From: a virus
Taxonomy: Duplodnaviria; Heunggongvirae; Uroviricota; Caudoviricetes
IMG/VR virus record: IMGVR_UViG_2511231131_000002
Reading direction: 5' to 3' (one strand)
Length of the DNA: 62,812 nt
In this document: positions 19,901 through 22,900 of the stretch, one piece after another
Layout of the letters: every line of letters begins with the position of its first letter
How positions within the stretch are numbered: position 1 is the first letter of the stretch
Position numbers: made by a program

Positions 19901-22900
19901 CTGGTCCAGGTGGTAACGATGGTCTGGAAGGTGTCAGCTACATACCATACAAAGATATCGTTGGCGTATGGACTGTATGTCACGGACACACCGGAAAAGA
20001 CATCATGCCCGGTAAAACGTATACCGAAGCAGAATGCAAAGCCCTCCTGAATAAAGACCTTGCCACGGTCGCCAGACAAATTAACCCGTACATCAAAGTC
20101 GATATACCGGAAACAACGCGCGGCGCTCTTTACTCGTTCGTTTACAACGTGGGCGCTGGCAATTTCAGAACATCGACGCTTCTTCGCAAAATAAACCAGG
20201 GTGATATCAAAGGCGCATGTGATCAGCTACGGCGCTGGACATACGCTGGCGGTAAGCAATGGAAAGGGCTGATGACTCGCCGCGAGATTGAGCGTGAAGT
20301 CTGTTTGTGGGGGCAACAATGAGCAGGGTAACCGTTATTATCTCCGCTCTGGTTATCTGCATTATCGCCTGCCTGTCATGGGCTGTTAATCATTACCGCG
20401 ACAATGCCATTACCTACAAAGCCCAGCGCGACAAAAATGCCAGAGAACTGAAGCTGGCGAATGCGGTAATTACTGACATGCAGATGCGTCAGCGTGATGT
20501 TGCTGCGCTCGATGCAAAATACACGAAGGAGTTAGCTGATGCGAAAGCTGAAAATGATGCTCTGCGTGATGATGTTGCCGCTGGTCGTCGTCGGTTGCAC
20601 ATCAAAGCAGTCTGTCAGTCAGTGCGTGAAGCCACCACCGCCTCCGGCGTGGATAATGCAGCCTCCCCCCGACTGGCAGACACCGCTGAACGGGATTATT
20701 TCATCCTCAGAGAACGGCTGATGACAATGCAGAAGCAACTGGAAGGAGCACAGGAATATATCCGTACCCAGTGTATACCGTGATGTTTTGTTATGAAGGT
20801 GTTACTGGTAACGTTAAGGTAATTTAACAAAAAGTCAGTTCCGGACTTTATAGTGTGCTCAGATCATGGCCAAAAACGATTTCTGTGATAAATATTTTGA
20901 ATATTATTTACAGATAAATGAAGTTGTTCGCATGGATGGAAATATTACAATAGAGTATGAAGTATATGTCCGTATTGTATGGGCAGAGAAGGCAAAAACA
21001 CGGTAATTCCTTGTGTTGCCATTATACCTGATTGGCAGAATAGTTGTTTGGTTTTGAGTATATAGTCAGCGTTTTTTGTTCAGTAATAGCTCTCTCAAAA
21101 AATAATAAAATAAGGTGATTATTTGGGTTTATTATTTAGTTTTTTTGTGTGTTGTTTTGTTGTTTTTCTGTGATTTATTTTTTATTGTTATTTCATTAAA
21201 GGAAGGTAAATTCAGGATAGCAGTCTGTAGATAATCGGAGGTCACTTATGCTACATGATCACCTGGCAGAATGTCTGGAGAAAAAAGGACTGTACCGGAG
21301 AGCAGCTGAACGATGGGCAAAAGTGATGGTACAGCTAAGTGATGACCAGAAAAGAAAAGTGGCGGCACAGAAACGAGCAGAGTGTTTGCGTAAGGCGCGC
21401 CGGACTCCGGTTTCACCGATGAACCTGACAGAAATAAAACAAGCGGTCAACAGACTACATTCTGAGTTGGGAATGGGATTTGAAGAGCGGCGGGTATTCC
21501 GACGATATAAAGGGACAGGAGAACAGAATACGTCCGGAAACGCGCGGTCAAAAAAATGCTAAAAAATATCTGAGAGAGTTATTGCCTGTTACCATAATAA
21601 AAAGCGACTTTAGTGGTCGCTTTTGTGTCATATATAAGTCATTTAAGTAAACCTGTCTGAACAGGTGCTCTGGTCGTGTTTGTCTTTGTTGGGTAAAAAT
21701 TGAGAATATTTTTCATTAATTAATCTTCTTCTGCAGGCTTCAATAACCCACGCTGAAAAATTCCCTGAACCTTTCTGGTCAAGAGCAATATTAATTTGTT
21801 CAATCATCTGGTTTGGAAATCGGATGTTGCGGGTTGTTGTTCTTCGGGTTCTGTTCTTCGATGACATAATGTTGCTCATATTCAGTGTTGCTGATTTGTA
21901 TTGTATGAAGTTGCTTTTACGTTAAGTTGATGTGGGGCAATTAATACGATATCTGCGCCATAATTGATTATTTGTCGTTGTTTGATGGCTCACACACATC
22001 GTTGTGATGAGCATTATTCACATGAAATTATTATCATTTTTGTGGGTCCTTTCCGGCGATCCTGCAGGCTACGGGGCGGCGACCTCGCGGGTTTTCGCTA
22101 TTTATGAAAATTTTCCGGGATCCATGTCCGGTTTCTCTGCAAGTTAACTATATGAAAAATATAAAAACAGGCTGTCCGTGAACCGGACATGTGCAAAAAA
22201 CGGACATGTAAACCGGACATGACCGGTTTTGTGCTGATTGTGAGGTAAGAGTTTTTGCGAGGTGAGGAGTGGCTACGCAGACTGAAGTTGCCAGGCATTT
22301 GAGTCTGACCGATCGCCAGCTTCGCAGATTGCAGAAATTACCGGGTGCCCCGATCTCGAATAAGCGAGGGCAACTGGATCTGGATGCCTGGCGCGATTTT
22401 TACATATCGTATCTGAGAAGAAGTAAAAACGATGTGCCTGATGGCGATAGCAAAGAAGACTATGAAGAGAAATTGCTTATTGCCAGATGGGAACTGACAG
22501 CAGAACAGGCTGTTACACAGCAGTTAAAAAATGAGGTGTCAAAAGGAAAACTGATTGACACCGGGTTCTGTATTTTTGCCCTCAGTAAGCTGGCAATGGC
22601 GTTATCCAGTACGCTTGATTCCATCCCTTTATCCATGCAGCGACAGTTTCCTGATTTAACACCGCGCCATCTTGACCATCTGAAAAACCTTATTGCTAAG
22701 GGGGCAAATCAGTGTGCGCGGGCAGGGGATAAATTACCGGATTTACTTGATGAATATATCAGAGCAACAACTGAATAATATGATGAGCGCTGTCACAACT
22801 GCATTACAGCCCCTGATAAGGGCATTGCCGGTGACGCCAGTTGAATGGGCTGATCAAAATTATTATCTGCCTAAAGAATCTTCATATGGTGAGGGAGAAT

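Follow-up and report, generated by a model that had tools for sequence, protein, structure and literature searches.

The closest described systems are the group 1 Pch regulators of E. coli O157:H7 (PchA, PchB and PchC) and PerC of EPEC. When PchC of O157:H7 strain PA20 was expressed from a plasmid in K-12, the activity of a chromosomal ler::lacZ fusion increased from 1,577 to 7,783 Miller units, about 5-fold, and the activation of ler::lacZ by any group 1 Pch is at least 4-fold (PMC5931665). Full expression of ler and espA and adherence depend on the group 1 pch genes and not on pchD or pchE (Iyoda and Watanabe, 2004, cited in both PMC6265319 and PMC4456613). PchA acts by relieving the silencing by H-NS/StpA/Hha: activation of LEE1 by Pch occurred only when the promoter was repressed by H-NS/StpA/Hha/YdgT, the occupancy of H-NS at LEE1 was lowered by Pch both in vivo and in a reconstituted complex, and Pch did not co-precipitate with H-NS and co-activated Ler-dependent promoters (PMC4764244). 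The LEE1 promoter is likewise the reported target of EPEC PerC (PMC4332760), which is required for LEE expression in EPEC under some conditions only (PMC4764244). Further PerC homologues on prophages or prophage-like elements are PchD and PchE of O157:H7 (groups 2 and 3) and the K-12 protein YfdN; they are reported to influence ler slightly or not at all, and PchE represses csgD and curli (PMC6265319, PMC5931665).

A sequence-only reading of a stretch of 62,812 nt (the window; IMG/VR virus record IMGVR_UViG_2511231131_000002) had suggested a PerC-like gene in a defective prophage, and this locus was compared with the systems above. Our main reading, to which we assign a probability of roughly 88%, is that 21248-21562 represents pchC, a group 1 Pch regulator of the LEE that is carried as late-region cargo of lambdoid prophages in attaching-and-effacing E. 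coli.

The gene at 21248-21562 and its protein

ORF calling in the window led to a reading frame with an ATG start and borders exactly at 21248-21562 on the plus strand (315 nt, 104 codons), and a Shine-Dalgarno sequence GGAGG could be read at 21236-21240 (+), 7 nt 5' of the ATG. The locus is an intact pchC gene preceded by a ribosome-binding site, and its product has 104 aa, 12.1 kDa and a pI of 10.3. Previously, a PerC/Pch signature had been recognised at the N-terminus and an HMM search proposed as the check. This search gave a full-length match to Pfam PF06069 (PerC) with 150.1 bits (E 2.2e-44; gathering score 22.6 bits), and as residues 1-89 align with profile positions 1-89 of 90, the likeness to PerC extends beyond the N-terminus to the whole domain and is well above what chance would produce. 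PerC was the sole Pfam-A match of the protein; a PHROGs search returned phrog_994 (2e-45) and several 'transcriptional activator' families, and a search of NCBIfam matched no model. In RefSeq the protein is WP_001302690.1, a 'PerC family transcriptional regulator' annotated in CB9615 and DEC5D, and the same exact protein is present on at least 1,000 contigs. A word-indexed protein search retrieved 16 close relatives, none of them named PchB or PchC. Many ORFs of similar size overlap the region on both strands (e.g. 21259-21450 on the minus strand, 63 aa), which might be taken to mean that the frame is mis-called or arose by chance and that no gene is present. We give this explanation no credence in view of the full-domain Pfam match, the ribosome-binding site, the RefSeq annotation, the recurrence of the exact protein on so many contigs and its experimental characterisation (PMC5931665).

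For comparison, the three pch genes of group 1 in O157:H7 strain Sakai (in Sp4, Sp11 and Sp14) were taken by coordinates. The window gene is identical to pchC (ECs_2737, Sp14) in 315/315 nt and 104/104 aa, whereas pchB (ECs_2182, Sp11) shows 2 nt differences, at nt 172 and 183, and pchA (ECs_1091, Sp4) shows 3, at nt 16, 172 and 183. At the protein level, M58V is the sole difference to PchB (99% identity), and L6V and M58V are the only differences to PchA (98%). Positions 16, 172 and 183 have been published as the variable ones among group 1 pch genes (PMC5931665), and all differences of the window gene from pchA, pchB and pchC are confined to them. Judged by this identity, the window gene is the known pchC allele in E. 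coli O55:H7, already known and studied among the pch genes since 2004. The discovery value is small, as the allele is identical to the characterised one. For annotation, the RefSeq entry 'PerC family transcriptional regulator' can be named pchC.

An AlphaFold2 model of the protein, built on a shallow alignment of 8 sequences, reached moderate confidence (pLDDT 67.9, pTM 0.36) and predicts four helices followed by a disordered basic tail (residues 83-104). A PDB sequence search gave nothing significant (best E 1.5, a designed TPR protein, residues 4-28), and Foldseek of the model against the PDB led to no match (best E 6.5). The absence of a sequence or fold match in the PDB is in keeping with a published statement according to which Pch is unlike any known DNA-binding protein (PMC4764244). 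As a side observation, the N-terminal helix pair of the model looks TPR-like, which is a resemblance only.

The cargo slot and the upstream region

The lysis genes of the prophage comprise a holin (19619-19825, +) and a lysozyme gene (19825-20322, +), both assigned from ORF calling, Pfam and RefSeq, and the Rz spanin gene (20307-20783, +; 158 aa; Pfam Phage_lysis, E 2.6e-53), in which Rz1 is embedded (20539-20721, +; annotated as rzoD in CB9615 and DEC5D). Rz is the last lysis gene and forms the left boundary of the slot. The right boundary is a phage backbone gene of the YlcI/YnfO family (21643-21867, -; Pfam DUF3950, E 1e-19; NCBIfam YlcI_YnfO_N), which is convergent with pch and lies between pch and cos. 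The lambda-type cohesive-end sequence GGGCGGCGACCT (cos) has a single exact match in the window, at 22074-22085 (+), and is followed by the gene for the terminase small subunit Nu1 (22269-22778, +; Pfam Phage_Nu1, phrog_57, phrog_1790, RefSeq). The position of pch between the lysis genes and cos, which had been read from the sequence before, was therefore confirmed, with Rz/Rz1 ending at 20783, pch at 21248-21562 and cos at 22074-22085. The gene is located in the lambdoid late region downstream of the lysis cassette, in a layout as in Sp11 and Sp14. From the gene order, pch and a 46-aa ORF upstream of it occupy the variable cargo slot in which lambda-like phages carry bor. A search of a phage-genome collection led to a single partial match to pch, on a 1.6-kb fragment; as pch is almost absent from this collection, it is essentially a feature of prophages and not of sequenced free phages.

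Upstream of pch, an AT-rich region of 464 bp (20784-21247, +) shows a G+C content of 31%, compared to 0.49 in pch and 0.48 in the window, and probably contains regulatory or promoter elements. It includes the 46-aa ORF (20866-21006, +), which matches phrog_2157 (E 1.4e-35) and is without RefSeq annotation. The region is 99.4% identical to that of Sakai pchC, 94% to that of pchA and 88% to that of pchB. A promoter scan indicated one weak sigma-70-like site in it, at 21016-21044; overall, the sigma-70 scan returned 3 sites versus 4.6 expected from shuffles and thus no excess, and it did not locate the pch promoter. We infer that the AT-rich region is the own, H-NS-sensitive regulatory region of pch. 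Among the signals described upstream of pchA and pchB are LrhA, and Lrp together with butyrate (PMC4456613, PMC7279287), and as the upstream regions of these two genes are only 94% and 88% identical, their regulation may not transfer fully to the window gene.

A simple terminator scan found no terminator-like site on the plus strand between 20300 and 21248. Downstream, a hairpin AAAAGCGACU-UUAGU-GGUCGCUUUU with a 10-bp stem was detected in the centroid fold at 21600-21624, after the pch stop codon and between the convergent pch and ylcI-like genes, and it is kept in Sakai Sp4. This hairpin is a putative bidirectional intrinsic terminator, which was missed by the simple scan because its T-run is short. 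An Rfam scan of the window gave no RNA family within 20-22.3 kb. The sRNA HnrS was considered as a neighbour of pch and set aside, as it has been placed in Sakai Sp9, Sp10 and Sp12, with no position given relative to pch (PMC13502914). Two inputs to pch may be proposed from these data. The first would be an own promoter within the 31% G+C region, whose equivalents at pchA and pchB respond to LrhA and Lrp/butyrate. The second would be read-through of the Q-dependent late transcript once SOS has inactivated the intact repressor, and this is suggested because no intrinsic terminator was found on the plus strand between Rz and pch.

The prophage, its host genome and the LEE

The window starts with proA, followed by a tRNA-Thr gene (thrW, 1369-1444) and directly thereafter by the lambdoid prophage. 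Its early part reads int, exo/bet/gam, N, a cI-like LexA-family repressor gene, cro, cII, O, P, nin genes, Q and tRNAs; then follow DUF6645/SASA esterase, holin, lysozyme, Rz/Rz1, pch and nu1, and after these the head and tail genes, lom and the tail fibres. T3SS effector genes are found after the tail fibres (NleG, an EspW pseudogene, a DUF1076 gene, EspM2 and NleB). Several E. coli O55:H7 chromosomes contain the 1.5 kb around pch with 100% identity. DEC5D and TB182A matched perfectly over the tested 5 kb, and DEC5D is identical to the window over 2000-47000, while 2 SNPs separate the two within the last 21 kb. In the first 24 kb, the window and the CB9615 copy are set apart by four substitutions, an indel of a single base and an indel of 1.54 kb. 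According to these matches, the window is from an O55:H7 genome of the DEC5D/TB182A type with the prophage integrated at thrW.

The prophage had been called defective, and the comparison with CB9615 bears this out. In BLAST, window positions 1-24212 pair with 1-24213 of the intact CB9615 copy and those from 24202 onward with 25742 onward; the pieces overlap by 11 bp, which places the junction of a deletion of about 1,540 bp at 24202-24212. Through the deletion, the genes for the terminase large subunit and the portal are fused and the small head-tail joining gene between them is lost; what is left is a truncated ORF (22693-24285), in which the terminase large-subunit frame enters the portal gene out of phase. 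RefSeq lists both genes as pseudogenes in DEC5D, and further pseudogenes in the early region are DUF550 and an ea22-like gene. From the terminase/portal deletion it follows that the prophage is defective and cannot package DNA. The regulatory genes and the cargo of this packaging-dead prophage nevertheless look intact; the deletion would block the production of virions and would leave the pch circuit and the effector cargo in place.

As the prophage is decaying (terminase/portal deletion, several pseudogenes), pch might be an intact but silent or redundant passenger, silenced by H-NS, with the LEE controlled via the other pch copy, GrlA and other regulators. The 31% G+C content of the upstream region, typical of H-NS-bound DNA, the second pch copy in the genome and the lack of a convincing promoter in the scan are in line with this, as is the low level of all group 1 transcripts in untreated O157:H7 PA20 (PMC5931665). 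However, the pch ORF is 99-100% identical between the copies, while the 3' part of Rz reaches 86% and the cos region 65-89%, and the DNA flanking the pch module is only 86-95% identical between the window and the Sakai copies. The conservation of the ORF, the ribosome-binding site and the 464-bp upstream region at 99.4-100% amid such diverged flanks argues for selection or recent exchange and not for decay. Moreover, after SOS induction in PA20 no other group 1 copy was expressed or induced as strongly as pchC (PMC5931665), and several pch copies are described as acting additively on the LEE (PMC6265319, PMC4456613). We therefore regard a mere passenger as improbable and prefer the reading of the gene as a functional LEE regulator.

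A more specific proposal would be that the packaging-dead prophage at thrW has been kept as a stress-sensing virulence switch, in which SOS-triggered late transcription into pchC raises LEE expression without release of phage. It is suggested by the LexA-family cI, the Q antiterminator and the late operon, all of which look intact, and by the absence of a detected plus-strand terminator between Rz and pch. Part of it has been published, as pchC rose about 8-fold in O157:H7 PA20 after SOS induction with sulfamethoxazole-trimethoprim (PMC5931665). Were the proposal true, the 99-100% identity of pch amid flanks of 86-95% would reflect selection or gene conversion keeping the output. We consider it tentative, and on the whole rather unlikely.

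The expected target of the regulator is present in the host genome. DEC5D carries the LEE with espG-ler-escE...grlR, grlA at 96.8-105.7 kb, its Ler is 100% identical to Sakai Ler, and within the 817 bp upstream of ler the two genomes differ only at -252, at -658 and by an 11-nt gap at about -702 to -712, so that they are identical from -251 through ler. Through DEC5D, the window gene can be assigned to a host genome with LEE, ler and the LEE1 promoter, and eae (intimin) and tir were present in all ten closed O55:H7 genomes studied (PMC9413875). The O55:H7 genomes contain two copies of the pch module each, and therefore the contribution of the window copy may be partly redundant. Among 5,426 complete E. 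coli genomes, pch was found in 672 (1,874 places, median 3 and up to 5 per genome), with a best copy of at least 99% identity in 675 of 687 records, and ler with the LEE1 region was found in 696; these are totals set side by side and not an overlap. As a separate observation, the unusual strains BA92, Z1323CEC0003, UTAK-1 and 2013C-3277 occur in both the pch and the ler lists.

Mode of action and comparison with known systems

That a prophage-borne Pch activates the LEE had been cited in the sequence-only reading as established knowledge, and the about 5-fold effect in the published ler::lacZ assay was obtained with the same protein (PMC5931665). The reading of the prophage gene as a regulatory input to the LEE is supported by this identity. 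As to the mechanism described in the literature for this protein or its 98-99% identical relatives, the small basic Pch binds AT-rich DNA in silencing complexes of H-NS/StpA/Hha and decreases the occupancy of H-NS at the LEE1 promoter; ler then becomes accessible to transcription by RNA polymerase, and Ler, with Pch as co-activator, lifts the silencing of the remaining LEE operons and of non-LEE effector genes.

The main job of Pch might also be a general or phage-directed counter-silencing of late genes, effector cargo, curli, biofilm and acid resistance, with LEE1 as one of many targets. The T3SS effector genes NleG, EspM2 and NleB on the same prophage would fit such a role, as would the occurrence of PerC-family genes on plasmids of Salmonella and Klebsiella, two genera that are not known to carry the LEE. 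In addition, many binding sites of Pch on the chromosome have been reported, among them non-LEE effectors, acid-resistance genes and parts of the K-12 backbone (Abe, 2008, cited in both PMC4456613 and PMC4764244); csgA expression and biofilm are reduced by group 1 Pch (PMC6265319), and K-12 has the homologue yfdN (PMC5931665). On the other hand, the biofilm effects of PchA are ler-dependent (PMC6265319), and the number of genomes with group 1 pch is near that with ler (672 versus 696 of 5,426, compared as totals). Such a broader role also overlaps with the explanation of pchC as a LEE activator and does not exclude it. As the main job of the protein we find it quite improbable, and activation of the LEE is retained as the probable function of the window gene.

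The O55:H7 progenitor lineage thus already had the pchC allele and its upstream region, on a prophage at thrW and not, as in O157:H7, on Sp14 at serU, and in O55:H7 pchC stood alongside T3SS effector genes. The joint presence of pchC and effectors on the crippled thrW prophage is consistent with a common transfer of regulator and effectors by lambdoid phages and with their persistence after the phage has been crippled.

Compared with K-12, the slot of the window pch corresponds to that of DLP12, whose backbone reads essD-rrrD-rzpD/rzoD-borD-ybcV-ybcW-ylcI-nohD; the counterpart in the window is holin-rrrD-Rz/rzoD-[46-aa ORF + pch]-ylcI-like-cos-nu1, and the DLP12 cargo borD-ybcV-ybcW is unrelated to the window cargo in sequence and function. 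PchD, PchE and YfdN are set apart from the window Pch by their published descriptions. EPEC PerC, encoded on the EAF plasmid pMAR7, belongs to the same Pfam family and is 47% identical to the window Pch over residues 2-88 (E 1e-27), with the N-terminal LE-KG-YRRAA-RWA motif in common, and the window protein is, with 104 aa and a pI of 10.3, a small basic protein that can be aligned with it. In contrast, EPEC PerC has only 89 aa and is without the basic C-terminal tail, and perC is plasmid-borne and cotranscribed with the adjoining perA and perB, whereas the window pch is phage cargo. The window Pch is closest to PchA and PchB, which belong to the same family, are of equal length and are likewise sited after lysis genes, and to PchC. 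The gene order in Sakai Sp14 (Rz/Rz1 - pch - nu1 - terminase) equals that of the window, and the Rz-pch-nu1 arrangement is also found in Sp11, while in Sp4 the region is rearranged and interrupted by IS629, which follows the inverted pch segment. The window prophage differs from Sp14, which is integrated at serU, by its location at thrW, its lambda-type early region and its terminase/portal deletion.

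Effector genes and integration at thrW

Behind the tail fibre genes of the prophage, window positions 41974-46671 are occupied by a cluster of genes for type III secretion system (T3SS) effectors. It comprises NleG (41974-42552), an EspW pseudogene, a DUF1076/NleG-like gene on the minus strand (43292-43918), EspM2 (44101-44691) and NleB (45691-46671). The LEE regulator, encoded by the PerC-family gene pch, and LEE-secreted substrates are thus both carried by one element. Fragments of one tail-fibre-assembly gene and one integrase gene are interspersed among the effector genes, hinting at the remnant of a second phage.

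The lambdoid prophage and its effector island are enclosed by two copies of a 46-bp direct repeat (1399-1444 and 48872-48917), which corresponds to the 3' part of tRNA-Thr (thrW), and a second integrase gene (49029-50261, plus strand) begins just past the second copy. The arrangement of the repeat copies around prophage and island suggests tandem integrations at thrW. Adjoining the prophage is a P4-like satellite element (approximately 49000-61000) with genes for an integrase, ogr/Delta, Psu (polarity suppression), an Icd-like protein and a primase-helicase, and Rfam identifies isrK (56779-56856) and a C4 antisense RNA (56925-57012) there. Two further genes of the satellite, at about 50650-51730, form a pair of the 'ABC-three component system' type that may serve in anti-phage defence.

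Deletion between terminase and portal genes

BLAST comparison with the O55:H7 strains CB9615 and 2013C-4465 revealed that about 1,540 bp are missing at 24202-24212; the two aligned segments on either side of this junction share 11 bp. The deletion fused the genes of the terminase large subunit and the portal protein (affected genes 22750-24920), with loss of the head-tail joining gene. As only DEC5D and TB182A carry it among the top hits, the deletion is a lineage marker for the DEC5D/TB182A subgroup of O55:H7.

Reading frames adjacent to pch

Within the AT-rich region upstream of pch, an ORF of 46 aa (20866-21006, plus strand) gave a full-length match to phrog_2157 (E 1.4e-35) and is unannotated in the records of DEC5D, CB9615 and the O157:H7 strain Sakai. 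Its coding status is doubtful, since the positions at which pchC-type copies differ from those of pchA/B type are, as judged by eye, mostly non-synonymous. The intact Rz ORF (20307-20783, plus strand) encodes 158 aa and matches Pfam Phage_lysis with E 2.6e-53, yet for CB9615 and DEC5D RefSeq lists the embedded rzoD alone and leaves Rz unannotated.

Q gene, tRNAs and the downstream esterase gene

The Q antiterminator gene was located at 15883-16408. Its annotated end differs, with 525 nt in DEC5D versus 519 nt in CB9615, and this coincides with the substitution at 16400 (G instead of A), one of four that distinguish the window from CB9615. Downstream of Q, between the annotated tRNA-Asn and tRNA-Gly, a third tRNA (16545-16617, plus strand) was detected with Rfam at 47 bits, its anticodon loop CUUGUAA indicating UGU and hence Thr, and was called neither by ARAGORN nor by RefSeq. 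With mismatches at two pairs of the anticodon stem and one pair of the T stem, it may be a decaying tRNA gene. Directly downstream of Q and the tRNAs follows the gene of a large DUF1737/SASA-esterase/DUF6645 protein (17331-19172, plus strand), which looks like sialate O-acetylesterases of the NanS-p type. In Stx phages, the position downstream of Q and the tRNAs is occupied by stx.
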